A stretch of 64,000 nucleotides of DNA from an uncultured bacterium (lineage in GTDB: Bacteria; Verrucomicrobiota; Kiritimatiellia; CAIVKH01): positions 4,444-68,443 of the forward strand of contig CAIVKH010000238.1 in NCBI GenBank assembly GCA_903906425.1. The letters run 5' to 3'. The notes below the pieces were generated by a model. It saw only the letters and a program-made list of their open reading frames with translations. It did no database searches and was not told the DNA's origin. A program made the position numbers and the translations under genes. Within the stretch, counting starts at the first letter, position 1. Each line of letters starts with the position of its first letter. Below are positions 6,018 through 47,607 of the stretch, piece by piece.

Positions 6018-7571
6018 ATGGCGATGAAAAAGGCGGCACTCATATTCGGTTTTGTCCTCGCTCCCGTTCTGGGCGCAGTCTCCGCGACGTGGCACGTTGC
6101 GACCAACGGCAACGACCGCGCGGATGGCGCGGGTCCGGCAACGGCCAAGGCCTCGATTCAGGCCGCGATTGATCTGGCCGCGCCGGGCGACATCGTGCTG
6201 GTCGGCGATGGCGTTTATGCCACCGGCGGCCGCGTGGCCATCGGCGCGCTCACCAACCGCATCGTGGTTCGAACCGGCGTTTGCGTACAGAGCGTCAACG
6301 GGCCTTCGCGAGCGGTCATCCGCGGCTCCGGCGCGCCCGATGTCAACGCCGTGCGCTGCGCGTATCTTGGGAAGGACGCCAGCCTGTGCGGCTTCACGCT
6401 GACCGGCGGCGGCACCACGGTGGACAACGTGAAGCCCGACTGCCACGGCGGCGGGGTTTATTGCGAGCCGTCGGCCGTGCTGAGCAACTGCGTGCTCGCT
6501 GGCAACGGGGCGTTTCACGACGGCGGCGGCGCCTATTGCGGAACGCTGAACAATTGCGTGCTGCGCGGCAACTCCGCGCTCTTCGGCGGCGGCGCGTTCG
6601 CCGCCACGCTGAACAACTGCACGCTGTACGGCAACACCGCGTCCTATGGCGGCGGCTCCGCGTGGTATGGCACGCTGAACAACTGCATCCTCTCGAACAA
6701 TTCCGCGCTCTTCGGCGGTGGCTCGGACAACGACAGCGCGCTGAACAACTGCATCCTCACCGGCAACACCGCCGAGCGCAATGGCGGCGGATCGGATGGC
6801 GGCACGCTGAACAACTGCACGCTGGCCGGCAACACCGCCAGCCGCAACGGCGGCGGCACCGATGGCGGCACGCTCAACGGCTGTGTCCTGTCCGGAAATT
6901 CCGCGGGGCGAAACGGCGGCGGATCGGAGGGCGGCTGGCTGGCCCGTTGCACGCTGGCCGGCAATGCCGCCGGCAATCTCGGCGGCGGCGCGCATCTCGG
7001 CGCGCTCAACAACTGCGTCATCGCCGGCAACTCCGCGATCGGCGGCGGCGGCGCGGCGTATGCGGCGCTGGACAACTGCGTCGTTTCCGGCAACACCGCG
7101 CGCGCCTATGGCGGCGGCACATTTCAAGGCACGCTCAACAACTGCCTGCTCACCGGCAACTCCGCCGCCTTCAGCTTCGGCGGCTCGCTCGGCGGCACGC
7201 AGAACAACTGCACGGTTGTCGGCAACACTGCCGGCAATCACGGCGGCGGCATCAGCGGCGCCGAGCTCAACAACTGCATCGTTTATTTCAACACCGCGCC
7301 CGAAGCGCCCAACGGCAGCAGCAATCTCATGAACCACTGCTGCACCGCGCCCCTGCCCGCCGAAGGAACCGCCAACATCACCAACGATCCCGGCTTCATC
7401 AACGCCGCCGCGGCCGACTACCGCCTCGATTTGCATTCCCCCTGCATTGACGCGGGCGGCAAGACCGGCCTTCCGCCCGCGGCCGATCTCGACAACAAGC
7501 CCCGCGTCGTCAACGGCGTCATCGACCTCGGCGCCTACGAATTTCAAGGTGCCAAGCCCACCGCCCCGTGA
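6018..7571 (+). CDS. Secreted right-handed beta-helix repeat protein (DUF1565-like N-terminus, about 13 Pmp-like repeats, choice-of-anchor-Q-like C-terminus)
   Basis: Signal peptide MAMKKAALIFGFVLAPVLGAVSA. N-terminus WHVATNGND...GDIVLVGDGVY. About 13 repeats of roughly 22-23 aa (LNNCxLxGNxAxxxGGG). C-terminus DPGFINAAAADYRLDLHSPCIDAG...IDLGAYEF. Confidence 0.8.
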   Translation: MAMKKAALIFGFVLAPVLGAVSATWHVATNGNDRADGAGPATAKASIQAAIDLAAPGDIVLVGDGVYATGGRVAIGALTNRIVVRTGVCVQSVNGPSRAVIRGSGAPDVNAVRCAYLGKDASLCGFTLTGGGTTVDNVKPDCHGGGVYCEPSAVLSNCVLAGNGAFHDGGGAYCGTLNNCVLRGNSALFGGGAFAATLNNCTLYGNTASYGGGSAWYGTLNNCILSNNSALFGGGSDNDSALNNCILTGNTAERNGGGSDGGTLNNCTLAGNTASRNGGGTDGGTLNGCVLSGNSAGRNGGGSEGGWLARCTLAGNAAGNLGGGAHLGALNNCVIAGNSAIGGGGAAYAALDNCVVSGNTARAYGGGTFQGTLNNCLLTGNSAAFSFGGSLGGTQNNCTVVGNTAGNHGGGISGAELNNCIVYFNTAPEAPNGSSNLMNHCCTAPLPAEGTANITNDPGFINAAAADYRLDLHSPCIDAGGKTGLPPAADLDNKPRVVNGVIDLGAYEFQGAKPTAP

Positions 7572-16513: not shown

Positions 16514-16520
16514 TCGAAAC

Positions 16521-17734: not shown

Positions 17735-18781
17735 TCAGGCGGTCAAGTATTTTGCGGCGGCCTCGACGACCTGCGCGACGGAAAGATCCATGATGCAGGC
17801 GAGGTCGTGTCTGCATTCGCCCCACGCGCACTCCGGCGGGCAGACGCGGCCGCGGAGGATCGTCAGATTCGTGTCGCGCACGGGTCGCCAGACGGCCTCC
17901 TTGCTCGGGCCGAAAATCGTGACGATGGGAATGTCGGTCGTCGCGGCGAGATGCGTTGGGCCGCTTTCGTTCGAGATGAGAATCTGCGCGCGGTCGAAAA
18001 GCGCGAGGATATTTTCGAGGTTCTCGATGAGCGGCCGTGCGCGTCCGGCGTGTTTCATCTTTTGAATTATGCCGCGCAAAAATTCCTCTTCGCCTGGAGC
18101 GCCGATGAAGACGGTGTCGAGGTTCCATCGCTGCGCGAGTTCATCGGCGACAGCGGCAAACCGTTCGCCGGGCCACTGGCGGAAGGCATAGCCCGCCCCG
18201 GAATGAATCACGGCGAACCGCGGTGGAATTTTCCCGAACAGCGTTTCGAGGCTGGCGGCAATCTGATCGGTCGCCGCGGCGCTGGCGCGCAGGCGCAGAC
18301 GCCCCGGGCGCTCGCGACCGATCACCCGCATGAAGGGCATGTAGCGATCGGTCTGGTGCAAGATCGGTTCCTGCGGCAGGCGGCGGGAATACATGAAACT
18401 GCGCCGCGATTTCTCCAGGCCGATCCGATGCCGGGCCATCGTCAACGTCGTCAGCGTCACCGACTGGATTCCGCCGCCGACATCAATGACCAGATCGTAG
18501 CGCGGCGGAGCGAGGCGTTTCGCGATGGCGGTAAAATGCGCGGCCTGTTTCCATTTGCTGCCACGGCGATTCTTCTGCTCGTAGGGAATCACGTCGCGCA
18601 GCGACGGCAGGAGCTTTGCCACAGATGCGAAACGCGCATCCACGACAGCATCAACCGGCGCATCGAAATATTCCGCGAGCGACTGCATTGCCGGCAGCGA
18701 CAAAACGAAATCGCCGACGTGATGGTTGGTCATCACGAGCAGGACTCGTCGGGGATTTTTCGGCAGCAGTTCGGTCGTCAT
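17735..18781 (-). CDS. Glycosyltransferase family 9 (LPS heptosyltransferase-like)
   Basis: ...LFDRAQILISNESGPTHLAATTDIPIVTIFGPS...; N-terminus ...HHVGDFVLSLPA. 4-nt overlap with the upstream GT39 gene. Confidence 0.85.
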   Translation of the reverse strand: MTTELLPKNPRRVLLVMTNHHVGDFVLSLPAMQSLAEYFDAPVDAVVDARFASVAKLLPSLRDVIPYEQKNRRGSKWKQAAHFTAIAKRLAPPRYDLVIDVGGGIQSVTLTTLTMARHRIGLEKSRRSFMYSRRLPQEPILHQTDRYMPFMRVIGRERPGRLRLRASAAATDQIAASLETLFGKIPPRFAVIHSGAGYAFRQWPGERFAAVADELAQRWNLDTVFIGAPGEEEFLRGIIQKMKHAGRARPLIENLENILALFDRAQILISNESGPTHLAATTDIPIVTIFGPSKEAVWRPVRDTNLTILRGRVCPPECAWGECRHDLACIMDLSVAQVVEAAAKYLTA

Positions 18782-20433
18782 GCGGGCGGAAAGTTGCAGA
18801 CAACGACGTATTTGTCATCGCGATAAATTTCACGGGCCTTCTTCCGGCAGCCGTCGCTCAGAAAATCCAGCGGCGATTTGTCCGTGCCGGCCTTGCCGCC
18901 GCGCTTGCGGTCGGTGGTGATGACAAAGACGCGCGGCTCGGAATCGAACCAGCGATAAACTTGGCCGACTTCTTCTTCTTTGTAGAGCCGGCCCAAAAGT
19001 CGCAGCCAATCACTTTCAATTTGCGGTTCGAATTTGTCGGAGAACGAGAGCGGATACTGGAGATAGAAATTCACGCCGCGCGGATAATTTTTGTAGAGCA
19101 CGACGCGGTCGCCGGGCCGCAGTTGCGGAATGAGCGCCTCGCACATTTTCCGCGGCGAGCTGTGCGCCTCAATTTCGTTTTCGTGGCGCGAAAGAATGCC
19201 GATGCAGGCGAGGTGGGTGACAACGATGAATGCCGCCGCGCCGATGAGCTTCTTCCCGCCCCGGGAAAGAACAGTCGCGAGCAGCGCGGCCGCAGCCGGC
19301 AAGAGCCAGATCGCGTCGCGCCAGATTAAGCCGTGATCCCATCCGAGCTGGCCCGGGCCGAGGAGGGCGAGCAGCGCGACAAGGAGCGCGGCCATGAGGA
19401 TCGAGAAGATCATCTGTTCCCGCCGACACCAGCGACTTTCGGCGGCGGTTTCGGCGGCTGCGAGGATAGCCAGCGGGGGAAAGAGCGGAAGAATGTAGGC
19501 GGGCAGTTTGGACTTCGACAGCGAGAACATGATGAGTGGCAGCACAACCCACAGGGTAAGCAGCCGAAATCGCGGGTCGGCGCGGAACCGGGAAACCACG
19601 TTTACGACTGGCATGGTCAACAGCGGAAACCACGGCAGGAAACCGCCGAGCAGTATCGGGATGAAATACCAGACAGGCTGCGAGCGGCCGGCGATGCCGC
19701 CAGACAAACGTCCGACGAGTTCCTGGCCGATGAAAAAATGCCAAAGCTCCGGGAACTTGACGCACGAGATGACGAACCACGACAGGCCGACGACGGCGCA
19801 GACGACGATTGCGGGCAAATTGAAAAGGCCCCGCCAGAGTTTGCCGTCGCGGGCAGGCAGATAGCGGTGGGCCACGAGCGTGAGGCCGACGATGCCGACG
19901 GCCGGCGGGCCTTTCGCGAGAAACGCGATGCCGAGCGCGATCCAGAAAATCCATTGCTGAAATTTCTTTCCGTCCTGAAACCACGCGACGGCTGCCCACA
20001 TCGAAAGCGTGATCCAGAAGGTCAGCATCATGTTCGGATCAATGATGTGCGCCATGACGAAGAACATCGGCGCGGTCAGCAAAATCAGCGTGGCCGCGAG
20101 CGCCTCGCGCTCGCCGTAGAGCCGCCGCGCGATGGATCGCGTGAGCAACAGCGTGCCGAGCGCGGCGAGCGCGGCGGGCAGGCGCGCCATCCATTCGTTG
20201 ACGCCGCCGATCCGATAGGAGAGCGAGCAGGCCCAATAAATCAGCGGCGGCTTGTTGAATTGTGCGAGATCGTAAAGCCGCGGCATGAGCCATGTGCCCG
20301 ACTTGAAAAATTCATAGCCGATGCCCGCGGTGCGGCCTTCGTCCGGCTCGGTGAGTCCGTAGTCTCCGAGCCGCCAGAAAAGCGCGAAGGCGCAGAACGT
20401 GAGCAGTAGAATGAATGCGGTGCGCCGGCTCAC
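18778..20433 (-). CDS. ArnT-like GT39/PMT_2 family membrane glycosyltransferase (paralogue B)
   Basis: LTEPDEGRTAGIGYEFFKSGTWLMPRLYDLAQFNKPPLIYW and more than 10 TM segments. GTG at 20433 overlaps the TGA of the upstream paralogue (GTGA). The track start 20583 would overlap that gene by 150 nt. Confidence 0.8.
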   Translation of the reverse strand: MSRRTAFILLLTFCAFALFWRLGDYGLTEPDEGRTAGIGYEFFKSGTWLMPRLYDLAQFNKPPLIYWACSLSYRIGGVNEWMARLPAALAALGTLLLTRSIARRLYGEREALAATLILLTAPMFFVMAHIIDPNMMLTFWITLSMWAAVAWFQDGKKFQQWIFWIALGIAFLAKGPPAVGIVGLTLVAHRYLPARDGKLWRGLFNLPAIVVCAVVGLSWFVISCVKFPELWHFFIGQELVGRLSGGIAGRSQPVWYFIPILLGGFLPWFPLLTMPVVNVVSRFRADPRFRLLTLWVVLPLIMFSLSKSKLPAYILPLFPPLAILAAAETAAESRWCRREQMIFSILMAALLVALLALLGPGQLGWDHGLIWRDAIWLLPAAAALLATVLSRGGKKLIGAAAFIVVTHLACIGILSRHENEIEAHSSPRKMCEALIPQLRPGDRVVLYKNYPRGVNFYLQYPLSFSDKFEPQIESDWLRLLGRLYKEEEVGQVYRWFDSEPRVFVITTDRKRGGKAGTDKSPLDFLSDGCRKKAREIYRDDKYVVVCNFPPA

Positions 20434-22133
20434 GGATTTTTCTCCGCGTCTTTTCGGAACAAAAAGGCGCTGACATCGAGCCGCGGCTGCTTCGCGAACG
20501 GCGCGGCCGGAATCGCGGACACATCCAGCGGTTGCTTCCGCGCCGAGCAGAGCAGTACATCGCCGGAATTCATGCCGGCCCAAGTCGCGGCAAGTCCGTT
20601 CGTGGACACGGCGACGTCGCGATGCGCGTACCAGGCGATGATCGAATTATGCGGGCCGGAAATGATGAACCGCGGCGCGGCCCGGATCGCCGCACGATTC
20701 GATGCGAGGAGTTCGACAATCGCGTGGTCGGCATCAACGATCTGTTCGAGCCGCAACGCATGGATTCCCGTCGCAAAGGCCAGGACAGCGGCGCAGGCAA
20801 CCATCGGCGCGATGACATCGCAGCGGAAAAAAAGCCGGAACAGCGCGACCGCGGCAAGCACCGAAACAAACGCGCCGGCCCAACCGAAAACGCGCGGCCA
20901 GGAAATCGGGCATGCGAAAAACCATGCCGCGAAAATCAGGAAGCCGGCCACCAGCGCGATCAGGCAGAGCGCGATGAGATAGACGCGCGCGAAGCCGGAG
21001 CAAAAATCGCGGCGCGGTTTCGTCTTTTCCAATGATTGGAAGTTTGCGCGGCCGTCTTTTCCAATGATTGGAAGTTTGCGCGCGGCCTCCGCGAGCAGCC
21101 AGCCGGTCAGAAGCGCGGACGGGGCGAAGAGCAGGAGCGCGTAGTGATTTTGTTTGCTGCTCAGCGCGCTGAGGATCGCGAACGAGGAGGCGAGCCAGCA
21201 AAGGAGATAGAGCGGGCCGCGATGGTGGCGGAGTTTTTTTGCGGCGCCAAAGATCGCGACGGGCAGCGCGAGCGCCCAGATGCCCAGGCGCGCGGGCAGC
21301 GTCCAGACGTAATAAAATATTGGGCCTTTGTGCGCTGATTCGGTCAGCAGGCGGTTGATTTCGTCGCCGGCCTGCGCGTTCGTGTTCGCCGTTTTGAGCG
21401 CGACGGCGATGTACCACGGCGCGGCGATGGCAGCGCAGATGACTAGCGCGACGATGATGCCGCGCAAAGTGAGAGCCGCGCGATGAGAACGCGCGACGAA
21501 AATAAATGTCGCCACGGCAGCGATGGGCATGGCGACGGAGGCGGGGCCTTTGAACATGAATCCGATGCCTGAAAAAATTCCGGCGAAAATCCAATGCTTC
21601 AGGTTTCCTGTGCGAACGGTCAGCGCGGTGAAGATCGAAAAAATCGTGAGCGAACAGAACAGTGCTTGCGGGATGTCGGTCTCGGCGAGGCGGGCGTGAC
21701 GGAGAAAGCCGACGGATGTGGCGAGGATGATGGCGCCAACAAATGCGGCGCGGCGGCCGATCAATCTTCGCCCGAGAAAAAATGTCGCAAGGACAAATGC
21801 GGTGCCGGCAGCCGCGGAAATTGCGCGCGCGGCGGCGGCGCTTTCGGTGGTGCCGGCGGCTTTGAAAGCCGAGGCGACGAGCCAGTACATGAGCGGCGGT
21901 TTGCGCAATCGTTCCGCGCCCATGAAATGCGGCACGATCCAGCTTCCGCCTTCGGCCATTTCGCGCGCGGCAAGCAAAACGCGGAGTTCCTGCTGGCGCG
22001 AAACGGAGCTTGCGCCCAGGCCTGGCAGCAGCAGCGCGGCGCACAGTAGGATGAGAAATGCGGCGGCCAGCCAGTTGTTTCTGGCAAGTTTGGAAATTGA
22101 AAACATGTTCGCGAACGCGGACGTTGCGTGCAC
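20430..22133 (-). CDS. ArnT-like GT39/PMT_2 family membrane glycosyltransferase (paralogue A) carrying an in-frame P15 pair
   Basis: SRQQELRVLLAAREMAEGGSWIVPHFMGAERLRKPPLMYW and many TM segments. The loop ...AEAARKLPIIGKDGRANFQSLEKTKPRRDF... is encoded by P15 copies at 21027-21073. Confidence 0.8.
   Translation of the reverse strand: MHATSAFANMFSISKLARNNWLAAAFLILLCAALLLPGLGASSVSRQQELRVLLAAREMAEGGSWIVPHFMGAERLRKPPLMYWLVASAFKAAGTTESAAAARAISAAAGTAFVLATFFLGRRLIGRRAAFVGAIILATSVGFLRHARLAETDIPQALFCSLTIFSIFTALTVRTGNLKHWIFAGIFSGIGFMFKGPASVAMPIAAVATFIFVARSHRAALTLRGIIVALVICAAIAAPWYIAVALKTANTNAQAGDEINRLLTESAHKGPIFYYVWTLPARLGIWALALPVAIFGAAKKLRHHRGPLYLLCWLASSFAILSALSSKQNHYALLLFAPSALLTGWLLAEAARKLPIIGKDGRANFQSLEKTKPRRDFCSGFARVYLIALCLIALVAGFLIFAAWFFACPISWPRVFGWAGAFVSVLAAVALFRLFFRCDVIAPMVACAAVLAFATGIHALRLEQIVDADHAIVELLASNRAAIRAAPRFIISGPHNSIIAWYAHRDVAVSTNGLAATWAGMNSGDVLLCSARKQPLDVSAIPAAPFAKQPRLDVSAFLFRKDAEKNP
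21027..21073. repeat. P15 pair inside a CDS, 32-bp phase
   Basis: Perfect TTCCAATGATTGGAA at 21027-21041 and 21059-21073. Spacer gtttgcgcggccgtctt. Translated on the minus strand as PIIG...FQSLE. Confidence 0.95.
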
Positions 22134-22136
22134 GGG

Positions 22137-22442
22137 CTAGCGGACGCGCGACGCCGCAGAGGCATCGCCTTCAAATTTGAAAATGGTCTCGCCGGGCTTG
22201 GCGTATCCAAAGTCCTCGCGGGCGATTTTTTCGACGAAGCGCGGATCGGTCTGGAGCCGGTCTTCCCTGATCTTCAGGTCGTCGAGCTTCGCTTGCTGTT
22301 GTTTAACGTCTTGCTCCAGCTCAGCTTTTCTCGTCAGCAGCGTGTGGCGTTCGAGGAGCGGCTTGCGATAACCGTATCCGATGGCAACGATGACAAGCGC
22401 CGCGCCAACTGCAATGGATGCTTTGAAGACGGTATTCCACAT
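22137..22442 (-). CDS. ftsB: Septum formation initiator FtsB/DivIC family
   Basis: N-terminal TM segment, coiled coil (ELEQDVKQQQAKLDDLKIREDRL), then DPRFVEKIAREDFGYAKPGE. Conserved eno-ftsB neighbourhood. Confidence 0.8.
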   Translation of the reverse strand: MWNTVFKASIAVGAALVIVAIGYGYRKPLLERHTLLTRKAELEQDVKQQQAKLDDLKIREDRLQTDPRFVEKIAREDFGYAKPGETIFKFEGDASAASRVR

Positions 22443-22494
22443 GATTTTTGCGGAGTGTAGTGAATCGTTAGTTTTTGGCTAGAACAGAAAATAG

Positions 22495-22525
22495 AAAAAA
22501 GCCCCGCCTGCGGGCGGGGCTTTTT
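22495..22525 (-). terminator. Rho-independent (bidirectional-looking) terminator after eno
   Basis: Stem gccccgcc/ggcggggc (22501-22508 / 22513-22520) with loop tgcg. Flanked by A6 on one side and T5 on the other, so a U-run follows the hairpin on either strand. Confidence 0.75.
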
Positions 22526-22552
22526 CTTCATGCGGCGCGGGCCGTCGCGTCA

Positions 22553-23836
<1,284 letters not shown>

Positions 23837-24156
23837 TTATGAAAAAAGTCGGCGCACGTTAGGCAAAACACCTGCGGGCCGCAAGCACGTATCCCGCGGA
23901 ATTTTCAAATCGGGGAAAAGCCGAAGGCCGTCTATTCCGTCAAGAATCTCTCGAAATGAAGCCGTGGCGCCGCGATCTCCATTGGTCTAAATGATGAAAT
24001 TGCCGGGAACGCTACGTCACCCGATTTCCGGCTCCAAAGCGAGAGACTATTCTTTGCAACTTTGCCTGCTGGACGATGCGGGTGCCATCAAGGCACCCGA
24101 TCTGCAAATTAAAATCACCGCACATCTCCCCTCGTTTGGTTGCTCTCAACAACCGC

Positions 24157-24594
24157 TCAGGAATGTGCCGTGTTCTTGTCGTCATCGAGTTCCTTTATGA
24201 TGCGGTCGTAACACGAAGGACAGACTCCGTGGCTGAATTCCGCCAGCGTTCGGTCGGATACATAGGCTTCCATCTGCTGCCACGCGCTGTTCTCGATTTG
24301 AACTTTCTTGCAGTACGAACAGACGATGATGAAGCCGCGCAAAATACGCTTTTTCTGAAGATATGTGTGGCCGACAGTGACGATGCAAACGGCAATGATG
24401 CCTGCGGTGATCAGGCTGGCCTTGAGCCAGTCCGCCGGTTCGTGCGGCGTGCCATACAACAGGTGCTTCAGATCGACAATTTCTGCCGCCCAAACGAAGC
24501 AGATCAAGAGAAGGAAACACATGAACTGCCAGAACGCGACGTGTTCCAGCGGCTTTTGCAAGGGCTGTTCGCGGTTCATCTGCGGGTTCTTCAT
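24157..24594 (-). CDS. Hypothetical membrane protein with C-terminal Cys4 tail (CSYCKK...SHGVCPSC)
   Basis: Two or three TM segments, then IIVCSYCKKVQIENSAWQQMEAYVSDRTLAEFSHGVCPSCYDRI. AT-richer than its surroundings. Confidence 0.55.
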   Translation of the reverse strand: MKNPQMNREQPLQKPLEHVAFWQFMCFLLLICFVWAAEIVDLKHLLYGTPHEPADWLKASLITAGIIAVCIVTVGHTYLQKKRILRGFIIVCSYCKKVQIENSAWQQMEAYVSDRTLAEFSHGVCPSCYDRIIKELDDDKNTAHS

Positions 24595-25551: not shown

Positions 25552-27006
25552 TTGAAATCGCCTGACGAAATCCTTTCCGCCGCCCGCGTCGCCATCGCGC
25601 GCGATCCATCCGCAGGTTATCCGCCGCTTTCCGCCGCGCCATTTCACCCGTCGGAGCAAATACCAGAATATCGCGGACCGGTTGCGAAAGAACACAATCC
25701 AGTATTTGCGCTCGTGCGCGAGGCGCTTCGCGAACTCGGCCTCGATGCTGCCAGATTTGGAACGGCGGAATGGAATCCGATCGGCGATCTCGTGCCGGCC
25801 GGCGCGAAGATTGTCGTGAAACCGAACTGGGTTTTGCATCGGAATGAAGGCAGCGGCGGAACCGACGAGTTGATCACGCACGCATCGGTTCTGCGGGCCA
25901 TCCTCGAATATGTGTGGCTCGCGAATCCGGGCAAGGTTGTCGTCGGCGACGCGCCGCTGCAAATCTGCGATTTCGGCGCGATGATGAAACTTGGGTTCGA
26001 CCGCGTGGCCGACTATTTCAAATCTTCGGGTCGCGAAATCGTCGTGAAAGACTTCCGGCGGACGGTGATGGTTCGCGAAGATACCAGGGCGGATGTCAGT
26101 GAAAATCTGAAACCGCTTGATGATTTTGTCATCGTTGATCTCGGCCGCGATAGCTTGCTCGAACCGATATCTGGTGACGCGGGAAAATTCCGCGTGACGA
26201 TGTACGATCCGCGCAAGATGGGCGAAAACCACCGGCCCGGTGTTCACCGCTATTTGATCGCCCGCGATGTGCTCGAAGCGGACCTCGTCATCAACGTTCC
26301 GAAATTGAAGACGCACAAAAAAGCAGGCGTGACGCTCGCGCTGAAGAATCTGGTCGGCATCAACGGCAACAAGGACTTTTTGCCGCACCACCGCAAAGGC
26401 GCGGCGAATCGCGGCGGCGACAATTACGCGGAAGCATCGCTGCCGAAAACGGCGGCGGAGAATCTTCTCGATTTTATCAACCGCCATCTCGACAAGCCGC
26501 GGTTTTATCAGCGTAGCGCGGTGATGATTTACAAGCTGCTCTGGTTCGACAAAATTCGCGGCAGGCTGACGGACATCGAAGGCGGCTGGCACGGCAACGA
26601 CACGATCTGGCGGACGTGCCTGGATTTGAACAAGGCGCTGATTTACGCGGATGCAAATGGAAGATTTCACGACACGCCGCAACGGAAGACGCTGCACATT
26701 TGCGACGGGATCATCGGCGGCGAAGGCGAAGGGCCGCTGCGACCGATCGCGCGGAAAGCCGGCGTCATCACAGCTGCGATCAACGCCACGGCTCATGACT
26801 GGATCGCCACGAAAATCATGGGATTCGATCCGGCGCTGATTCCGATTTGCCGCCACGCGTTCGATGCGCAGAAATTCCCGCTCGCGGATTTTTCGCCGGA
26901 TTCGATCGAAATTCGCGGAAGTCCTTTGATGCCGGCCCAACCACCATTCAAGCCGGCCGCGGGCTGGCGTGCAAAACTTCTCGCGCAGGAAACGGCTAAT
27001 TTATGA
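25552..27006 (+). CDS. DUF362 domain protein (paralogue 1)
   Basis: IVVKPNWVLH..., INVPKLKTHKKAGVTLALKNLVGINGNKDFLPHH, WHGNDTIWRTCLDLNKA. TTG start is uncertain. Confidence 0.6.
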   Translation: MKSPDEILSAARVAIARDPSAGYPPLSAAPFHPSEQIPEYRGPVAKEHNPVFALVREALRELGLDAARFGTAEWNPIGDLVPAGAKIVVKPNWVLHRNEGSGGTDELITHASVLRAILEYVWLANPGKVVVGDAPLQICDFGAMMKLGFDRVADYFKSSGREIVVKDFRRTVMVREDTRADVSENLKPLDDFVIVDLGRDSLLEPISGDAGKFRVTMYDPRKMGENHRPGVHRYLIARDVLEADLVINVPKLKTHKKAGVTLALKNLVGINGNKDFLPHHRKGAANRGGDNYAEASLPKTAAENLLDFINRHLDKPRFYQRSAVMIYKLLWFDKIRGRLTDIEGGWHGNDTIWRTCLDLNKALIYADANGRFHDTPQRKTLHICDGIIGGEGEGPLRPIARKAGVITAAINATAHDWIATKIMGFDPALIPICRHAFDAQKFPLADFSPDSIEIRGSPLMPAQPPFKPAAGWRAKLLAQETANL

Positions 27007-28175
27007 AACCGATTCGCCCCAATGAAAATTTTCTCATCTTCGGCTCGCCCGCGATCGAGCAGCCGGAAATTGACGAGGTGATGGATTGTTTCAAGCGCAG
27101 CTGGCTCGGCACCGGGCCGAAGGTCGCGAAGTTCGAGGAGGATTTTTGTGGTTATATCGGCGCGCCGAATGCGACGGCGGTGAATTCCTGTACCGCTGCA
27201 CTTCATCTGAGTTTGATCGCCAGCGGCGTCGGGCCCGGCGACGAGGTCATCACGACGCCGATGACGTTTTGCGCGACGGCGAACGCGATCATTCACGCGG
27301 GCGCAATGCCGGTGCTCGCGGACGTCGATCCGCAAACGATGAATCTCGATCCGCGCGAGGTGGCGAAAAAAATCACGCCGAAGACTCGCGCGATCTTGCC
27401 AGTGCATTTTGCGGGACGCCCGTGCGACATGCCGGCGCTCGTCGCGCTGGCGGAAAAACACGGGCTGAAGATCATCGAGGATTGCGCACACGCGATCGAA
27501 ACGCAGATTGGCGAAAAACACGCGGGAACGTTCGGCGATTTCGGCTGTTTCAGTTTTTATGTGACGAAAAACATCATCACCGGCGAGGGCGGGATGGTCG
27601 TGACGAAACGCGAGGAGGACGCCGCACGGATCAAGATGCTCGCGCTGCACGGCATGAGCAAGGACGCGTGGAAGCGGTTCAGCGACGAGGGCTACAAGCA
27701 TTATCAAGTGGTCGAATGCGGCTTCAAATACAACATGATGGACGTGCAGGCAGCGATCGGAATCCACCAGCTGCGGCGCATTGAAACCTACTGGCGACGC
27801 CGGACGGAGCTCTGGGCGCGCTACAACGAAGCATTTGCGAAGCTTCCGATCACGCTGCCCGCGCCCGCCGCGCCCGGCACGCGCCACGCATTTCATCTTT
27901 ATTCGATTTTCGTGGACGAGTCGCGCTGCGGAATTTCGCGCGACGCCTTTCTCGACGGCATGACGCGGCACAACATCGGCGTCGGCGTTCACTATCTGAG
28001 CCTGCCGGAACATCCGTATTATCAGCGCACATTCGGCTGGCGCGCCGGGGATTTTCCGAACGCGATGAAGATCGGCCAGCAGACCGCGAGCCTGCCGCTT
28101 TCGGCAAAACTCACAGATGACGATGTCGCGGATGTGATCGCGGCGGTGCGGCAGCTCTGCGGGAATTTCCAATGA
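27003..28175 (+). CDS. DegT/DnrJ/EryC1/StrS-family PLP-dependent sugar aminotransferase
   Basis: ...CTAALHLSL..., FCATANAIIHAGAMPVLADVD, FSFYVTKNIITGEGGMVVT (PLP Lys). ATGA overlap with DUF362. The stop TGA is the centre of P15 copy 28167-28181. Confidence 0.9.
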   Translation: MKPIRPNENFLIFGSPAIEQPEIDEVMDCFKRSWLGTGPKVAKFEEDFCGYIGAPNATAVNSCTAALHLSLIASGVGPGDEVITTPMTFCATANAIIHAGAMPVLADVDPQTMNLDPREVAKKITPKTRAILPVHFAGRPCDMPALVALAEKHGLKIIEDCAHAIETQIGEKHAGTFGDFGCFSFYVTKNIITGEGGMVVTKREEDAARIKMLALHGMSKDAWKRFSDEGYKHYQVVECGFKYNMMDVQAAIGIHQLRRIETYWRRRTELWARYNEAFAKLPITLPAPAAPGTRHAFHLYSIFVDESRCGISRDAFLDGMTRHNIGVGVHYLSLPEHPYYQRTFGWRAGDFPNAMKIGQQTASLPLSAKLTDDDVADVIAAVRQLCGNFQ

Positions 28176-28213
28176 TTGGAAGTTGCGAGGGCTGTTTTTT
28201 CCAACCATTGGAA
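28167..28213. repeat. P15 pair, 32-bp phase
   Basis: Perfect copy at 28167-28181. Copy at 28199-28213 is ttccaaCcattggaa. Spacer gttgcgagggctgtttt. Confidence 0.9.
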
Positions 28214-30863: not shown

Positions 30864-31556
30864 GTGGACCGGGCGAATTATTCCGTGGCTTACGAACTGA
30901 AAAACATGCTGGTGAACCGCATCGCGGATCGACATTTCCGCGAGATGTCCTCCAGATATCTGCATGGCCGGTTGATCGACATCGGTTGCGGGATCAAACC
31001 CTACCGCGAGGTGCTCGCACCGCTCGTTGCAGCGCACATCGGCGTGGATCATGAAGGATCTCTGCACGATCGCAGCAACATGGATTTGACGGGCACGGCC
31101 TATTCGATTCCCGCGCCAGACGGCTCGTTTGATTCCGCGCTTTGCACGGCGGTGCTCGAACATCTGGAGGAGCCGGAACGGGCCATCCGCGAGTGCCATC
31201 GCGTGCTGAAACAAGGCGGCATGGCGATCTATTCCGTGCCATTCATCTGGCATTTGCACGAGGAGCCGCGCGATTTCTATCGTTATTCGAAATACGGGCT
31301 GAAGTATCTGTTCGAGAAATGTGGGTTTGAAATCGTCGAGCTTCGCGCGCTATCGGGTTTCTGGGTCACGTTCGGCCAGATGCTCGTCTATTACCTTTAC
31401 ACTTTCAACCGGGGCCCGCTGCGCTGGATTCCCATTATCCCTGCGCTGGGCCTGCTGATTCAGGGCGTCAGCTTTGTCCTCGACTGGCTGCATTGCCGTG
31501 AAGAGTGGACATGGATGTACATGCTGGCGGCGCGAAAAAGGGAATCATCAGGATGA
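30864..31556 (+). CDS. Class I SAM-dependent methyltransferase
   Basis: LIDIGCGIKPY..., FDSALCTAVLEHLEEPERAIRECHRVLKQGGMAIYSVPF. Confidence 0.75.
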   Translation: MDRANYSVAYELKNMLVNRIADRHFREMSSRYLHGRLIDIGCGIKPYREVLAPLVAAHIGVDHEGSLHDRSNMDLTGTAYSIPAPDGSFDSALCTAVLEHLEEPERAIRECHRVLKQGGMAIYSVPFIWHLHEEPRDFYRYSKYGLKYLFEKCGFEIVELRALSGFWVTFGQMLVYYLYTFNRGPLRWIPIIPALGLLIQGVSFVLDWLHCREEWTWMYMLAARKRESSG

Positions 31557-32635
31557 AAATCGGCATCATCGGATTTGGCGGAGCAGGTCAGGCGCATTAC
31601 CGCCGCTTTGTCACGTTGCCCGGCGTGTCGGTTGCGAGGGTATTCGAGCCGAAGCCGGACAACCGCGCAAAGTGGCAGAAACAATTTCCGCAAATTACGT
31701 TCGCGACAAGCCGCGAGGAGTTGCTCAATGCCGTTGACCTTGTGAGCATCTGCACGCCGGATCACCTGCACGCCGGCGATGCGCTTGCGGCAATCGGCGC
31801 CGGCAAACATACGCTGGTTGAAAAACCGATGGTCACGACCCGCGGGGATGCGGAACAAATCGCCGTGGCGCTTCAGATCAATCCGCGTGTTGTTTTCGGC
31901 GTTCACCACCAGATGCGTTTCATTCCGGCCTTTGTTGCGGCCCGCGATCTTTTGCAGCGCGGCGAACTCGGCACCCTGCTGGCGCTGGAGGCGGACTATC
32001 TTCACGACATGCGTGAGCGCGCGACGTTGTTCGACGACTGGCGGGTCCGCCCGGAAGGTTTTCAGCAGATCGGCCTCGGCGGCTTGTCACACACGCTGGA
32101 TCTGCTGCGCTGGGTGGCGGCGGATGAGATTGCAGAAGTCCACGCCTACGGCGGCCACAATGGCTGGCCCGAATATCCGGACATCGACACGATGACCGCG
32201 ACGCTGCGTTTCCGCTGCGGAGCAATCGGGCGGACGTTCATGACGATCGCCAGCCCCGGCCCTCAACGCAACACGCTGGCGGTCTACGGCTCGAACGGCC
32301 AGGTCCGGGACAACGTTCTCTGGCCGGCCCGGCGCACGCGGCCCCGCCTCACCGTCGTCCCGCGCAGTCTGGCGGCACGGAAACGCGACCGCGCAGGGCT
32401 GGCAATCGCCGGTTTGCTGACAAGATTTTCCATGTTCCGCAACTATCCGCTCAGCGCCTACGAGCACGACGAAGCGAGCCTGCGGCTGGTGCGGGAGTTC
32501 ATTTTATGCGCACGCGATGGCCGCCCGTTTTCCATCGGCGTCGAAGATGGCCGGCGCGCGGTCGACCTGTGCCTCGCCTGCATCGAATCGCAGCGCGGCG
32601 GCCGGCCCGTCGCTCTTCCAATGATTGGAAAATGA
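31553..32635 (+). CDS. Gfo/Idh/MocA-family NAD(P)-dependent sugar oxidoreductase
   Basis: MKIGIIGFGGAGQAHY Rossmann start, ...ICTPDHLHAGDALAAIGAGKHTLVEKP. ATGA overlap with the upstream methyltransferase. The C-terminal ...LPMIGK is encoded by P15 copy 32616-32630. Confidence 0.85.
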   Translation: MKIGIIGFGGAGQAHYRRFVTLPGVSVARVFEPKPDNRAKWQKQFPQITFATSREELLNAVDLVSICTPDHLHAGDALAAIGAGKHTLVEKPMVTTRGDAEQIAVALQINPRVVFGVHHQMRFIPAFVAARDLLQRGELGTLLALEADYLHDMRERATLFDDWRVRPEGFQQIGLGGLSHTLDLLRWVAADEIAEVHAYGGHNGWPEYPDIDTMTATLRFRCGAIGRTFMTIASPGPQRNTLAVYGSNGQVRDNVLWPARRTRPRLTVVPRSLAARKRDRAGLAIAGLLTRFSMFRNYPLSAYEHDEASLRLVREFILCARDGRPFSIGVEDGRRAVDLCLACIESQRGGRPVALPMIGK

Positions 32636-34139: not shown

Positions 34140-35384
34140 ATGCCGCTGCGCGTCCTTCATGTTTTCGGCCAGTACCTCCACGATACGGAGAACTGGGCGT
34201 TTCGTCTGATCCGCGACATTCCGGACTGCAAAGTACTCGTCGGCGCAGAGCAGTTTCTGAAATGCGGCTTCTACGATCCCCGCTTCGAATTCATCGAGTT
34301 TCCATTCCGGCAGTGGGACCGTCCGCGGCGGAACATTCTCGAACGCGCCGCGAACGGCTTCATCAGCCACGCGCTGCTGCCGTTCTATCCACGCTGGCTC
34401 GCAAGCCAGTCCGGGCCGGTTGACATCGTCCACGCACACTTTGGCTACATCGGCTGGCAGTATCTTCCGACGGCGCGGAAACTGCGCGCGCCGCTCGTCG
34501 TTTCCTTTTACGGCTCCGACTACAGCCGCCTGCCGACCGAGCAGCCCGTCTGGCGGGAGCGCTACCGCGACCTCTTCGGCGAGGCGGCTCTCATCCTGTG
34601 CGAAGGTTCGCACGGCATCGAGCAGCTTGTTGCGCTCGGCTGCCCGCGCGAAAAAATCGCCGTTCAACACCTCGGCATCGATCTGAAAACCTCCGTCGCC
34701 GGGCGCGAAACGGAAATTTCCAATGATTGGAAAAATGCCGCCGGAAGACTTCCAATCATTGGAAATTTTTTTGCGCCGCGGACGAAGAGGCCGGGCGAGT
34801 TGCGCCTCGTGCAGGTGGCGACGATGCGCGAGAAGAAGGGGCACATCTATACCGCACAGGCGTTCAGGGAGGCGTTCGCGGATTGCCCGAACCTGACGCT
34901 GACTTTCGTCGGCGGCGACAAGGAAGACCTGAAGGGCGGCGTGGAAAAAGCGCTCGGCCCGGCGCTTTCGCGCGTGGAGTTTCTCAGCGGAATCGATTTT
35001 GCGCGGCTGCACGAATTCCTGCGCGGATTTCATGTCTTCATTCATCCGAGCGTCCACGCTGCAAACGGTGACTGCGAGGGCGGCGCGCCGGTCGTGCTGC
35101 TCGACGCGCAGGCAACGGGAATGCCGGTGATCGCCACGCGGCATTGCGACATTCCCGAGGAAGTCCGCAACGGCGAAACCGGATTGCTCGCGGATGAAAA
35201 GGATGTGGCCGGCCTTGCCGCGGCGATCCGCCGGTTTTATGCGATGGATCAGGCGGAATATGACGGGTTCGCGACGCGCGCAGCGCGGCATGTGGCGGCG
35301 GAATATGAGACGGGAAGGAATGCCGCGGCGCTGCGGGCGCGCTATGATGAAATCGCGGCTGGTCATCGGCGCGCGGGACCGTAG
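34140..35384 (+). CDS. Glycosyltransferase GT4 family carrying an in-frame P15 pair in the interdomain linker
   Basis: MPLRVLHVFGQY..., ...VATMREKKGH..., IHPSVHAANGDCEGGAPVVLLDAQATGMPVIATRHCDIPE. The linker ...GRETEISNDWKNAAGRLPIIGNFFAPR... is encoded by 34718-34764. Confidence 0.8.
   Translation: MPLRVLHVFGQYLHDTENWAFRLIRDIPDCKVLVGAEQFLKCGFYDPRFEFIEFPFRQWDRPRRNILERAANGFISHALLPFYPRWLASQSGPVDIVHAHFGYIGWQYLPTARKLRAPLVVSFYGSDYSRLPTEQPVWRERYRDLFGEAALILCEGSHGIEQLVALGCPREKIAVQHLGIDLKTSVAGRETEISNDWKNAAGRLPIIGNFFAPRTKRPGELRLVQVATMREKKGHIYTAQAFREAFADCPNLTLTFVGGDKEDLKGGVEKALGPALSRVEFLSGIDFARLHEFLRGFHVFIHPSVHAANGDCEGGAPVVLLDAQATGMPVIATRHCDIPEEVRNGETGLLADEKDVAGLAAAIRRFYAMDQAEYDGFATRAARHVAAEYETGRNAAALRARYDEIAAGHRRAGP
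34718..34764. repeat. P15 pair inside a CDS, 32-bp phase
   Basis: Perfect copies at 34718-34732 (G) and 34750-34764 (C). Spacer aaatgccgccggaagac. Confidence 0.95.
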
Positions 35385-44949: not shown

Positions 44950-46234
44950 AGTTCTCACGCGAAGCGAACGACCCGATCCCGCGTGGATCGCGGCGCAGTT
45001 GCCGTCCGGCGATTATCGGAAGATCGTCCTCAAACCGAACTGGGTTCAGCACGAAGTCTCGCCGGACTTTCCGATCCGCGCGCTCGTCACATCGGCCGCG
45101 ATCATTGATGCGACGATTCGGGCCTGCCTCGAAAAATATCCGCATGCGGAACAGATCCTCGTCGGCGATGTCCCGCTGCAAGGCTGCGATTTCGATTTGA
45201 TGCTTATGCAGTCTGGCGCGGATCTGGTCGCGAAGAACTTTGCGGATTACAAATCGCCGAAAATTGTCTTTCGCGATTTGCGTCGCGAGCGGTTCGAACT
45301 GCGAAACGGATTCCTGACGGAAATCCGCACTGGCGGTTTCGGTGATCCGGCTGGCTATCGAGAAATCGTGCTCGATGAAAAAAGTCTTCTCGAACCGGTC
45401 AGCGCCAGCCGGGAGCGATTTCGCGTTTCCGACTACGATATCAAACGCATCCAGAGCAGCCACCGCCACGGCCATCACCGCTACCTGTTCTCCGGATCCG
45501 TGCTTGCCGCCGATCTTTTCGTGAATCTGCCGAAGATGAAGACGCACCAGAAATCCGGCATCACCGGCGCGCTCAAAAACGTCGTCGGCTGCAACGGCGA
45601 AAAGGCGTTTCTGGTCCACTATCTCAAAGGCCGCCCGCAAAACGGCGGCGACGAATTTCCACCCGACATCGCGTGGCCGATTGAACTCCAGGTTCGCGTC
45701 CGCGAAGCGTTGCAAAAGAAATCCCGCGCGGCGTTCGCGGCGCTACAGCCCGCCTGGCGCGCGATGAAAAAACTCTACGGCATCCGCACCGAGGGCACGC
45801 GCGAAAATCTCGGCGGAAAATTCTATCTCGCCGCCGGCGCGTGGCACGGCAACGACACAATCTGGCGGATGGTTTATGACCTCAATCGAATCATCCGCTT
45901 TGCTCCGGCCGACGGCGGTACGCTGCGCGATACGCCGCAGCGCGCCTACATCGCGATTCTCGACGGCATCATCGCCGGTGAAGGCAACGGCCCGCTGCAG
46001 CCGCTGCCCGTCCAATCCGGCATTCTTGCCGCCAGCGACAATCCCTTCACTCTCGATCTCGCAATGGCGCGACTGATGGGTTTCGACCGCGAGAAAATCC
46101 CGCTTCTTTCGCATCGTACCGAATTCGGCAACTGGTCCGCTATCGACGATGCGACCCTGGCGAAAATCGATTTTCTTGCGCCTGTGAAGACATTCGTCGC
46201 GGCACCGGGCTGGCGCGGCCATATCGAGTTGTGA
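44942..46234 (+). CDS. DUF362 domain protein (paralogue 2)
   Basis: IVLKPNWVQHE..., VNLPKMKTHQKSGITGALKNVVGCNGEKAFLVHY, WHGNDTIWRMVYDLNRI. Collinear with 25552..27006. Confidence 0.6.
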   Translation: MLEVLTRSERPDPAWIAAQLPSGDYRKIVLKPNWVQHEVSPDFPIRALVTSAAIIDATIRACLEKYPHAEQILVGDVPLQGCDFDLMLMQSGADLVAKNFADYKSPKIVFRDLRRERFELRNGFLTEIRTGGFGDPAGYREIVLDEKSLLEPVSASRERFRVSDYDIKRIQSSHRHGHHRYLFSGSVLAADLFVNLPKMKTHQKSGITGALKNVVGCNGEKAFLVHYLKGRPQNGGDEFPPDIAWPIELQVRVREALQKKSRAAFAALQPAWRAMKKLYGIRTEGTRENLGGKFYLAAGAWHGNDTIWRMVYDLNRIIRFAPADGGTLRDTPQRAYIAILDGIIAGEGNGPLQPLPVQSGILAASDNPFTLDLAMARLMGFDREKIPLLSHRTEFGNWSAIDDATLAKIDFLAPVKTFVAAPGWRGHIEL

Positions 46235-47607
46235 ACACACACCTTCTTACCTACCTAAATCTGCAGCGCCTCATCGGCTCGCGCTGCGATCTGCACTATC
46301 GCGAGTTCCAATCATTGGAAAAGGCGGACGCGGAAACTTCCAATGATTGGAACTCGGCGAAACTCGAATCGCTCTTGCGGGACGCGGCGGAAAAAATTCC
46401 GTTTTATCGCGGGGTCGTCGCAAGAAAATCTCCGGCACTTTCCGACTTTCCGGTTCTGACGAAGGAAACAATTCGTGCGCGGTATTTCGATTTGATGTCG
46501 CCGCTGTTGCGGGCGGAATACGAGGCGAACGGCGGAAAATGTCCGCAACGCTACGGCTGGCTCGAAGTGAAGACAGGCGGTTCGACGGGTGTTCCGCTTG
46601 CTGTGATTCATGAGAAAGATTTTCGCGATCTCGACCGAGCATCGCGGATTTATCAGCAGGATTTGTGCGGCTTTCCGTTCGGCACGCCATATTTTCGTTT
46701 GTGGGGTTCGATGGCGGACATCAATGCGATGAAAGATTCGCGGCTTCATCGCACAATGACGGCATTGGCGCGCGAGGAATTGCTCAACGCGTTTCGGATG
46801 GAAGAGGCGCAGATGGATTTGTATCTCGACCGGATTGACCGCAGCGATGTCCGCCACATGATGGCCTACACAGACGCGGCATTCGCGCTCGCACGGCACG
46901 CGCGCAGGCGTGGGAGAGAAATTCGTCCGCTCAAAAGCATCATGGCGTGTGCGGGAACCGTGACGGACGATATCCGCGCGGAGCTTCGCGAAGTTTTCGG
47001 CGCGCGCATTCACAACAAATACGGGAGCCGCGACGCGGGCGAGATGGCTATCGAATGCGAGCGCGGCGGGCTTCACGAACTTTCGACTGCGATACATCTC
47101 GAAATCGTGGACGCAAACGACAGGCCATGTGCGCCGGGCGTTTCGGGCCGACTGCTGGTGACGTGCCTGTGCAATTTCAACTTCCCGATCATTCGCTACG
47201 AAATCGGCGATGTCGCCGCGTGGTCGGGCCGCGCGTGCGAATGCGGAAGACCGCAGCCGGTTTTGGAAAGGCTTGAAGGCCGTTGCGTCGAATTTGTCAC
47301 TCGCGAAAACGGCGATTACGTTTCGCCGATTTTCGTGATTCATATTGTTGGCGTGGTTCACAATCCCGGTTTCATTGAACGATTCCAGCTTGAGCAGACC
47401 GGCGCGTCGGAATTCGTGTTGCGCGTCGAAACAAAAACGCCGCTGACAGATTCTGCGCGCAATTCCTGGTGGCCCGCTCTGGAACGCGATTTGAAAACAG
47501 TTTTCGGCGCGGGCGCCCGGCTCGATTTGTATCTGACCGATAGAATTCCCGAAAGCGGCAGCGGAAAGTTTCTTTATGTTATCAATCGTCTTGGTGCGTT
47601 CAGATGA
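46231..47607 (+). CDS. Phenylacetate-CoA-ligase/CapK-family adenylate-forming enzyme
   Basis: ...LLRDAAEKIPFYRG..., KTGGSTGVPLAVIH (AMP-binding P-loop-like). The GTG start overlaps the upstream TGA (GTGA). The N-terminal ...REFQSLEKADAETSNDWNS... is encoded by the P15 pair. An alternative in-frame TTG at 46375 cannot be excluded. Confidence 0.7.
   Translation: MNTHLLTYLNLQRLIGSRCDLHYREFQSLEKADAETSNDWNSAKLESLLRDAAEKIPFYRGVVARKSPALSDFPVLTKETIRARYFDLMSPLLRAEYEANGGKCPQRYGWLEVKTGGSTGVPLAVIHEKDFRDLDRASRIYQQDLCGFPFGTPYFRLWGSMADINAMKDSRLHRTMTALAREELLNAFRMEEAQMDLYLDRIDRSDVRHMMAYTDAAFALARHARRRGREIRPLKSIMACAGTVTDDIRAELREVFGARIHNKYGSRDAGEMAIECERGGLHELSTAIHLEIVDANDRPCAPGVSGRLLVTCLCNFNFPIIRYEIGDVAAWSGRACECGRPQPVLERLEGRCVEFVTRENGDYVSPIFVIHIVGVVHNPGFIERFQLEQTGASEFVLRVETKTPLTDSARNSWWPALERDLKTVFGAGARLDLYLTDRIPESGSGKFLYVINRLGAFR
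46306..46352. repeat. P15 pair within the 5' part of an ORF, 32-bp phase
   Basis: Perfect copies at 46306-46320 (C) and 46338-46352 (G). Spacer aaggcggacgcggaaac. Confidence 0.95.

Follow-up and report, generated by a model that had tools for sequence, protein, structure and literature searches.

An in-frame pair of dispersed palindromic repeats within an ArnT-like glycosyltransferase gene of an uncultured verrucomicrobial bacterium

Results

The repeat pair and its host gene

The stretch of DNA analysed here, which we call the window, comprises 64,000 nucleotides of contig CAIVKH010000238.1 (GenBank assembly GCA_903906425.1, positions 4,444 to 68,443 of the forward strand) from an uncultured bacterium of the Verrucomicrobiota (Kiritimatiellia, lineage CAIVKH01). 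Scattered through it are copies of a 15-bp palindrome, P15, which nearly always stand in pairs, and one such pair lies inside an open reading frame (ORF) for a membrane glycosyltransferase resembling ArnT. The features of this locus are as follows.

21059..21073, minus strand: P15 copy read first on the coding strand (LPIIGK); motif match and translation
21027..21041, minus strand: P15 copy read second on the coding strand (FQSLE); motif match and translation
21021..21082, unstranded: perfect 32-bp tandem repeat enclosing both P15 copies; Tandem Repeats Finder
21012..21074, minus strand: about 63 nt, or 21 codons, encoding LPIIGKDGRANFQSLEKTKPR, missing from loop-less orthologues; alignment
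20430..22133, minus strand: ArnT-like PMT_2 (GT-C) glycosyltransferase gene; ORF, Pfam and model
18778..20433, minus strand: tandem PMT_2 paralogue without the insert; Pfam and alignment

Both copies, at 21027-21041 and 21059-21073, are perfect and read TTCCAATGATTGGAA, and the ORF at 20430..22133 on the minus strand runs uninterrupted across them, its translation being ...LLAEAARKLPIIGKDGRANFQSLEKTKPRRDFCSGF... at this point. A first-pass annotation of this DNA had reported the two perfect copies in the open frame, and its coordinates, frame and translation match ours exactly. From its GTG codon the longest ORF encodes 567 residues; gene callers choose the ATG at 22106, which gives a protein of 558 residues (P0001). 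The ends of the 21-codon insert are uncertain by a few codons.

The copy read first has the codons CTT CCA ATC ATT GGA AAA (LPIIGK), and the copy read second TTC CAA TCA TTG GAA (FQSLE). These two frames place different demands on the centre of the palindrome. The LPIIGK frame leaves the centre base free, so that a G is harmless there, and one orthologue has a G centre in this frame, yielding PMIGK. The FQSLE frame demands a C centre on the coding strand, as a G creates TGA. The earlier proposal that the C centres of the two copies avoid a TGA thus holds for the FQSLE copy but not for the LPIIGK copy. The pair is also a perfect 32-bp tandem repeat (1.9 copies, 100% identity by Tandem Repeats Finder), and 21021-21082 is the sole perfect tandem repeat among all P15 pairs of the window.

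Fold and topology of the host protein

In the N-terminal half of the host protein, Pfam detects PMT_2 (69.8 bits, cut-off 26.1) and PMT (41.4 bits, cut-off 22.7). Orthologues align over 95-98% of its length, the C-terminal part included, and a profile built from them has a single match in the PDB, ArnT of Cupriavidus metallidurans (5ezm, E = 5e-24). An AlphaFold2 model built on 29 orthologues has a mean predicted local distance difference test score (pLDDT) of 89 and a predicted template-modelling score (pTM) of 0.91, and Foldseek superposes it over its full length on ArnT (5f15 and 5ezm) with template-modelling scores of 0.72-0.74. Sequence identity to ArnT is just 15-16%, and "ArnT-like" is used here as a description of the predicted fold, not of function. 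Pfam, the orthologue alignment and the model agree with the first-pass view that both flanks of the insert belong to one ArnT/PMT_2-type protein. The label GT39 given to it there was loose, the best structural match being ArnT, which we take to belong to CAZy family GT83, and the Pfam family PMT_2.

The P15-encoded residues fall within the only long coil of the model, residues 343-367 in the 558-residue numbering, where pLDDT drops below 50 at residues 351-362 and where 8 Lys/Arg stand against 3 Asp/Glu. Past the insert the model has helices at 368-396, 405-428 and 432-457 and then a soluble alpha/beta domain, that is, the three transmembrane (TM) helices and soluble tail that had been noticed from the translation. 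In ArnT, 13 membrane helices precede a periplasmic domain, with the first periplasmic loop situated between TM1 and TM2 (PMC7801869). Because of this arrangement, counting back three helices from the periplasmic domain would place the insert most likely in the cytoplasmic TM10-TM11 loop, and its richness in Lys/Arg fits the positive-inside rule. Topology prediction, proposed in the first-pass annotation as a check on the loop, thus puts the insert in what the model suggests is a disordered coil, most likely on the cytoplasmic side.

The tandem paralogue at 18778..20433, whose GTG start overlaps the TGA stop of the upstream gene (GTGA), has no insert at the same position. It had been offered as an insertion-free control. 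The absence of the insert stands, but the paralogue is merely 21% identical to the host protein and for this reason a weak control; the real controls are the loop-less orthologues.

The insert among orthologues

By BLASTP the closest relatives of the host protein in the protein database are metagenomic, with 57-59% identity, and the closest named genomes are Prosthecobacter, Brevifollis and metagenome-assembled genomes (MAGs) of Verrucomicrobiaceae, with 46-48% identity. At the position of the insert the orthologues read as follows.

P0003: VPTVGK...DFQSLE
P0004: IPMIGK...DFQSLG
P0005: FTTLGK...NFQSLE
P0020: LPVIGK...NFQKLE
P0023: LPTAGK...QFQSLE
P0006: loop of the same length as the insert, sequence unrelated (fully decayed)
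P0007, P0009, P0010, P0016, P0019 and all outgroups: about 21 residues missing
Prosthecobacter-like clade: unrelated variable loop of 14-17 residues

The loop is thus common to several diverged orthologues and absent from others, which is a mixed answer to the question, raised by the first-pass annotation, of whether it is lineage-specific. The first five proteins listed (P0003, P0004, P0005, P0020 and P0023) share PxxGK...FQ(S/K)L(E/G) at one codon and in the same two frames, and the carrier DNA has P15 or near-P15 copies that are spaced by 32 nt and read in the two frames of the window gene. In all, seven genes of diverged lineages have a frame that runs uninterrupted through the repeat. The in-gene copies on contig L003 are TTCCAACCGTTGGAA, a variant that is still a perfect palindrome, and then a perfect copy; those on L005 are a perfect G-centred copy and then a copy with one mismatch; those on L007, L144 and L145 are more degenerate. 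Between the window and L003 or L005, 13-15 of the 15 bases of the P15 cores are identical, while the rest of the gene has 59-67% nucleotide identity and about 50% at third codon positions (five genes compared). The 17-nt spacer has diverged between orthologues and the 32-nt spacing has been retained. No TGA occurs in the TGA-sensitive copy in any carrier DNA read, its centre codon being TCA, TCC or AAG. In the degenerate second copies the codon changes are mostly synonymous (CAA to CAG, TCA to TCC, TTG to CTG), a weak hint that FQSLE may now be constrained as protein too.

The presence of the loop can be set against the presence of P15 elsewhere on the same contigs. The L005 contig also has an intergenic P15 pair at 5299/5331, and the L007 contig a single intergenic palindromic variant with two mismatches at 604. 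On the contigs of loop-less relatives we found no P15 pairs in 16-21 kb, where the density in the window predicts five to seven; L146 and L148, both loop-less, have one isolated degenerate copy each. No P15 copies were found at the Prosthecobacter-like loci. A P15-free genome keeping the same loop, which the first-pass annotation had named as evidence that would count against it, did not appear among the genomes compared, with the contigs L003, L144 and L145 too short to judge. The symmetric variant TTCCAACCGTTGGAA, in which both arms are changed and the palindrome is still perfect, occurs in two related species, within the gene on L003 (2639-2653) and between genes on L007 (604-618).

A neighbour-joining tree of the host protein with bootstrap, computed with the loop columns excluded, crude and based on a single protein, contains these groups.

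Clade A: window protein, P0003, P0004, P0005, P0006, P0007; bootstrap 91-94%
Clade B1: P0020, P0023; bootstrap 100%
B1 + B2: B1 with the loop-less P0009, P0010, P0016, P0019; bootstrap 68%
A + C: clade A with the Prosthecobacter-like clade; bootstrap 85%

A variant with one repeat unit

One protein-database entry, P0002, matches the window protein up to ...KLPIIGKD, then follows another frame and has a length of 446 residues. Its contig, L001, was assembled with MEGAHIT from a different sample and matches window positions 13698-30623 (16.9 kb) at 100% identity, except that it lacks exactly one 32-bp unit. The 446-residue product is recovered when one unit is taken out in silico, and a stop arises at codon 392 when one is added; the BLASTP matches included no three-unit allele. 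The two-unit form is found in at least four contigs from other samples, the one-unit form in one. A clean deletion between 30-bp direct repeats takes the two units to one. The reverse step is impossible by simple duplication, as the junction reads gc, not cg, and the two-unit form is therefore ancestral. The one-unit form may be a real knock-out allele or an assembly collapse.

The P15 family

With up to one mismatch allowed, the motif TTCCAATSATTGGAA has 42 matches in the window (0.03 expected from shuffles). They make up 21 loci, nearly all of two copies 32 bp apart from start to start, and 16 of the 21 lie between genes. Centre bases are G or C without exception, all combinations occurring in the pairs, and the symmetrised consensus is ...aAt-TTCCAATSATTGGAA-AtTt-(GC-rich)-aAaT-TTCCAATSATTGGAA-aTt.... 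Conservation of the flanks is weak and fades about 7 nt beyond each core, giving an element of about 61-63 nt, the same size as the 21-codon insert. Spacers are almost wholly different between loci. Pairs fold into a single long hairpin, core 1 being base-paired to core 2, with stems of 15-20 bp, free energies of -22 to -38 kcal/mol and z-scores of -4 to -9. The pair in the glycosyltransferase gene forms the weakest hairpin on its mRNA strand (-15.3 kcal/mol, z = -2.6), because both its centres are C and its outer flanks unpaired. Among 70 perfect pairs, drawn from the window and 55 metagenome contigs (58 pairs in the latter), pairs with inverted centres outnumber those with direct centres by 47 to 23 (p = 0.006). 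The 17-nt spacer has no within-locus self-complementarity beyond the consensus (2.84 versus 2.86 pairs). Compared with a miniature inverted-repeat transposable element, the whole unit is an inverted repeat, with only slight within-locus complementarity in the outer flanks and no recognisable target-site duplication there.

The 21 loci are spread over the 64 kb more evenly than expected by chance, with a mean gap of 3.2 kb and a standard deviation of 1.4 kb (coefficient of variation (CV) 0.44; P = 5e-5 relative to uniform placement, P = 0.0015 relative to gene boundaries taken at random), and the three pairs that lie in frame within genes fill gaps between loci that would otherwise be 5-7 kb. 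Pairs occur between co-directional, divergent and convergent genes, so that no single transcriptional role can apply to all of them. A promoter or terminator role was considered and set aside, there being no sigma-70-like site, and no terminator-like site after the pair on the coding strand of the glycosyltransferase gene.

Several known families were compared with P15. In 302 flanks of 12 nt, the tags of repetitive extragenic palindromic (REP) elements show no enrichment, whether of the GTAG type (GTAG 0, 8.2 expected; CTAC 2, 9.0 expected) or of the CGTC type (CGTC 8, 12.7 expected; GACG 22, 13.1 expected). The CGTC super-family had been suggested by the initial CGTCTT of the unit in the glycosyltransferase gene and was ruled out by this lack of enrichment across copies. 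At gathering thresholds Rfam has no match anywhere in the window, which excludes a known RNA family, and no tRNA or tmRNA genes were found there. The searchable literature returned only unrelated, primer-like matches to the motif. P15 appears to be an undescribed repeat family; although it acts in the manner of an intragenic REP or Rickettsia palindromic element (RPE), we do not place it in the GTAG, CGTC or RPE families.

Some further forms of the repeat were noted. Longer arrays of three and four units, with a period of 32-33 bp and units about 81-82% identical, lie at 56367-56445 and 59410-59521, in the intergenic regions on either side of a pyruvate phosphate dikinase gene. The window also has half-changed forms (TTCCAACCATTGGAA, TTCCAATCGTTGGAA), at 28199, 59410, 59474 and 44173. 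Outside it, contig L032 of a Kiritimatiellia MAG (GMC4_bin_25) carries two perfect copies 31 bp apart at 10266-10311, at the contig end, and L017, from a Verrucomicrobiota MAG, has two copies of TTCCAAGCATTGGAA. Given these two, the motif may extend beyond the present lineage.

Other overlaps with coding sequence

Four further P15 features of the window overlap genes.

34718..34764, plus strand: second P15 pair in frame (ISNDWK...LPIIG), in a GT4 gene, 34140..35384, at the linker between domains
46306..46352, plus strand: third in-frame P15 pair (EFQSLEK...TSNDWN), residues 26-41 of a PaaK-like ligase gene, 46231..47607
28167..28181, plus strand: P15 copy supplying the stop of a DegT aminotransferase gene, 27003..28175, through its internal TGA (28173-28175)
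32616..32630, plus strand: P15 copy encoding most of the C-terminal LPMIGK of a GFO/IDH/MocA gene, 31511..32635

Compared with the 11 closest homologues aligned, the nearest of which are 64-67% identical, the GT4 protein has an insertion of 24 residues, which the pair accounts for, between its two Rossmann domains. In the PaaK-like, adenylate-forming enzyme there is no length difference from homologues, many of which natively have F-x-x-L-E there. All three possible frame pairs are used by the in-gene pairs of the window, and where copies are read as TTC-CAA-TSA the centre is C in both cases. P15 peptides do recur in unrelated proteins, as had been foreseen from the first pair: SNDWK and LPIIG in the GT4 protein, FQSLE and SNDW in the PaaK-like ligase, LPMIGK in the GFO/IDH/MocA protein. 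A scan of the 55 metagenome contigs with their 58 perfect pairs gave no convincing additional in-gene case; 12 candidate ORFs were translated and judged by eye, and all were Arg-rich antisense ORFs or lay upstream of real starts.

Positions 27000 to 51600 form a polysaccharide-synthesis cluster of about 25 kb with nearly all genes on one strand. It contains genes for a DegT protein, an AsnB-like protein, hexapeptide transferases, methyltransferases, a Wzx-like flippase, a Wzy_C ligase/polymerase, at least seven GT4/GT2 glycosyltransferases and the exosortase EpsH, with many overlapping starts and stops and scant intergenic room. Two repeats distinct from P15 were also seen. Tandem repeats of 63-66 and 132 nt occupy 6520-7277 within ORF 6018..7571 on the plus strand, whose Gly/Asn-rich product has a weak NosD/beta-helix match and is probably a repetitive beta-helix surface protein, and an intergenic 21-nt tandem repeat (TAATCAAACCAATCCCCGCC, 3.5 copies, 90% identity) lies at 11228-11300.

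Discussion

We consider it likely that the pair in the glycosyltransferase gene is a dispersed palindromic doublet, carried in frame and tolerated as a loop of a single ArnT-like protein, and that it was inserted in a shared ancestor. The first-pass annotation had proposed such toleration of P15 as a loop within coding sequence, and the proposal is borne out by the open frame in seven genes and by the low-confidence coil within a confident full-length model. The pair would be one copy of a doublet of about 61-63 nt, made up of two TTCCAATSATTGGAA cores 32 bp apart and flanks of about 7 nt. A copy of 63 nt, that is, 21 codons that are stop-free in the frame concerned, would have joined the TM10-TM11 loop DNA of an ArnT-like GT-C gene, in an ancestor common to several related Verrucomicrobiota lineages. 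It would have been tolerated in a loop that is most likely cytoplasmic and far from the periplasmic active site, as a Lys/Arg-rich peptide predicted to be disordered. In genomes that carry P15, the in-gene 15-nt cores would then have changed little as the spacer and the remainder of the gene diverged, either through selection on the motif or through homogenisation against other copies. In lineages without P15 pairs on the available contigs, the loop would have decayed or been cleanly deleted. In the window genome the two units would by now have become an identical 32-bp tandem repeat, and that identity would favour a deletion of 32 bp there, which shifts the gene out of frame.

Several observations weigh against this account. 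Read-through as one polypeptide is something that we infer from conservation of the frame alone. The loop-bearing clades A and B1 are not sisters in the neighbour-joining tree, so that a single origin needs at least two or three clean losses (P0007 and B2) as well as decay (P0006 and clade C). The PaaK-like case is unlike a simple insertion, and insertion of a mobile unit is thus not the sole route by which P15 pairs arise. Finally, none of the roughly 60 window ORFs has a transposase or REP-associated tyrosine transposase (RAYT) domain; RAYTs are single-copy, and 64 kb cannot exclude one elsewhere in the genome. Nevertheless, a single ancient origin of the loop seems preferable to repeated insertion, because the carriers share the codon, the frames and the spacing, and because the decayed loop of equal length in P0006 is nested in clade A. 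Repeated independent insertion at a hot spot, with the same codon hit separately in different lineages, would follow the tree more directly, as B1 groups with the loop-less B2 (68%) and A with clade C (85%), and P15 has been active over a long time, the GT4 insertion being absent from all 11 homologues aligned. But coincidence in codon, frame pair and 32-nt spacing is not what separate events would be expected to give, the nesting of P0006 within clade A speaks for inheritance, and the deep nodes of a one-protein neighbour-joining tree are unreliable; we regard the hot spot as unlikely. It is very improbable that the gene is broken at the repeat, as a pseudogene or as two proteins (an N-terminal transferase core and a C-terminal part) with an open frame that is accidental. 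The one-copy contig does encode a truncated product, but the frame is open in seven diverged genes with the C-terminal three helices and domain conserved, the TGA-sensitive copy is free of TGA in every carrier DNA read, the ArnT fold is modelled confidently as a single chain, and after the pair the coding strand has no terminator-like site.

Two further explanations concern what the repeat might do rather than how it arrived. P15 may be mainly a selected cis-acting site rather than a selfish insertion, kept or created in genes for a function at the level of DNA: a site bound by a dimeric protein, a signal for chromosome organisation or one for uptake, any of which may be needed about every 3 kb, so that operons without intergenic room may place it inside genes. 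Such a role would account for cores that are conserved between species, at an unchanged spacing of 32 nt, with a spacer that diverges, for the even distribution (CV 0.44) with three in-gene pairs filling gaps of 5-7 kb, for the PaaK-like pair that sits atop a native F-x-x-L-E motif with no change in length, for centres that are always G or C, and for the recurrence in relatives of the symmetric variant TTCCAACCGTTGGAA; the lack of a transposase in the window and of REP tags points the same way. On the other hand, point mutation is unlikely to produce thirty specified bases at a fixed spacing; in two of the three in-gene cases 21 and 24 codons have been cleanly inserted, as expected of a mobile unit; the statistic on spacing covers no more than 64 kb; and no candidate binding protein was identified. 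We think this explanation somewhat unlikely as the main one, although the even spacing, the conservation confined to the cores and the in-place PaaK-like case are hints, none of them decisive, that P15 is a maintained cis element and not passive junk. The other explanation is a switch resembling phase variation, in which two units give an intact enzyme and one or three units a frameshifted, truncated protein through slippage. Genes for envelope glycosyltransferases are typically phase-variable, and the target here is a cell-envelope glycosyltransferase; moreover, the unit length of 32 nt is not divisible by 3, the repeat is without a mismatch (100%), a third unit would bring a stop at codon 392, and L001 lacks exactly one unit, is otherwise 100% identical over 16.9 kb and encodes the 446-residue P0002. 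Yet slippage is expected to be rare with just two units, just one contig, assembled with MEGAHIT, has the one-copy form, which could be an assembly collapse, compared with at least four two-copy contigs, simple tandem duplication of a one-copy allele cannot restore the two-copy form (the gc versus cg junction), and the two units are not identical in orthologues, all of which makes such a switch quite unlikely. A composite of the two, with P15 doublets as cis-acting punctuation every 3 kb or so that selection preserves even within coding sequence across deep divergence, and the 32-bp tandem repeat toggling the envelope glycosyltransferase as a contingency switch derived from a dispersed repeat, strikes us as similarly improbable.

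If, as we prefer, the pair is an inherited and tolerated doublet, its interest lies less in its position within a gene than in what has happened to it since. What seems new is a family, apparently undescribed, of perfect 15-bp palindrome doublets at a fixed 32-bp phase without a GTAG or CGTC tag, whose core has stayed nearly intact in a coding loop despite divergence to about 58% protein identity, and whose loop is decayed or lost where the contigs carry no P15 pairs. This pattern of core retention allows a test of whether repeats are kept by selection or homogenisation or are merely tolerated. Further, the one-unit variant knocks out a cell-envelope enzyme in an otherwise identical genome and, if real, would be a natural on/off polymorphism. 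Annotators of these Verrucomicrobiota should expect PIIGK/PMIGK, SNDWK/SNHWK and FQSLE in real proteins as well as in many spurious ORFs.

Palindromic repeats in frame within genes are already known, in Verrucomicrobiota too, and the bare finding is not new. The closest parallel in behaviour may be the RPEs, which Ogata et al. reportedly described in 2000 as inserted in frame in protein-coding genes of Rickettsia. Like P15, RPEs are dispersed palindromic repeats that lie in ORFs without breaking the frame and are translated as an extra surface or loop segment, at sites common to related species with variable decay, so that the same peptides appear in unrelated proteins. For P15, in-frame tolerance is seen in three pairs of the window, one of them a predicted disordered loop, and its translation would follow from the open frames. 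RPE-1 differs in being about 100-150 bp long, AT-rich, confined to Rickettsia and without sequence relationship to P15, which is a doublet of perfect 15-bp palindromes in a fixed 32-bp phase and is found in a verrucomicrobial genome whose GC content is about 60%.

Within genes, REP dimers of the GTAG and CGTC super-families encode 20-30 residues in many bacteria, most of all in Opitutus terrae (Di Nocera et al. 2013, PMC3733652). Like P15, REPs are short palindromes, mostly intergenic, often dimeric and sometimes inside ORFs, and their ends sometimes supply stop codons. Unlike those super-families, P15 has no GTAG tag and no excess of CGTC, and its core is a perfect palindrome with a single-base centre and a fixed spacing to its partner. 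The REP peptides of O. terrae are GC-rich (e.g. VGPALAAG) and unrelated to those of P15, and neither the P15 peptides nor the motif appear in the tables of that study. Given these dimers (PMC3733652) and the RPEs, the first-pass remark that a place inside coding sequence is unusual for REP-like repeats was overstated.

The doublet form itself recalls REPINs, REP doublets that form hairpins and are mobilised by RAYT transposases (PMC3116915). REPINs and P15 share a doublet unit whose halves pair as a long hairpin and a high copy number, and the excess of inverted centres in P15 (47 versus 23) is in keeping with such pairing. P15 differs from REPINs in that no RAYT was found in the window, in spacers that, unlike those of recently copied REPINs, are almost wholly different between copies, and in its even spacing. 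Even spacing is instead a trait of the uptake signal sequences (USS) of Haemophilus and the DNA uptake sequences (DUS) of Neisseria, which are 9-12 bp long and non-palindromic, with no doublets at a fixed spacing and no insertions of 60-70 nt into genes. Like P15, USS and DUS are evenly spread, with about one copy every 1-3 kb; they lie in intergenic DNA, often in inverted pairs, and also within genes without a change in length, and they too give rise to recurrent peptides and to motif "dialects" in related species.

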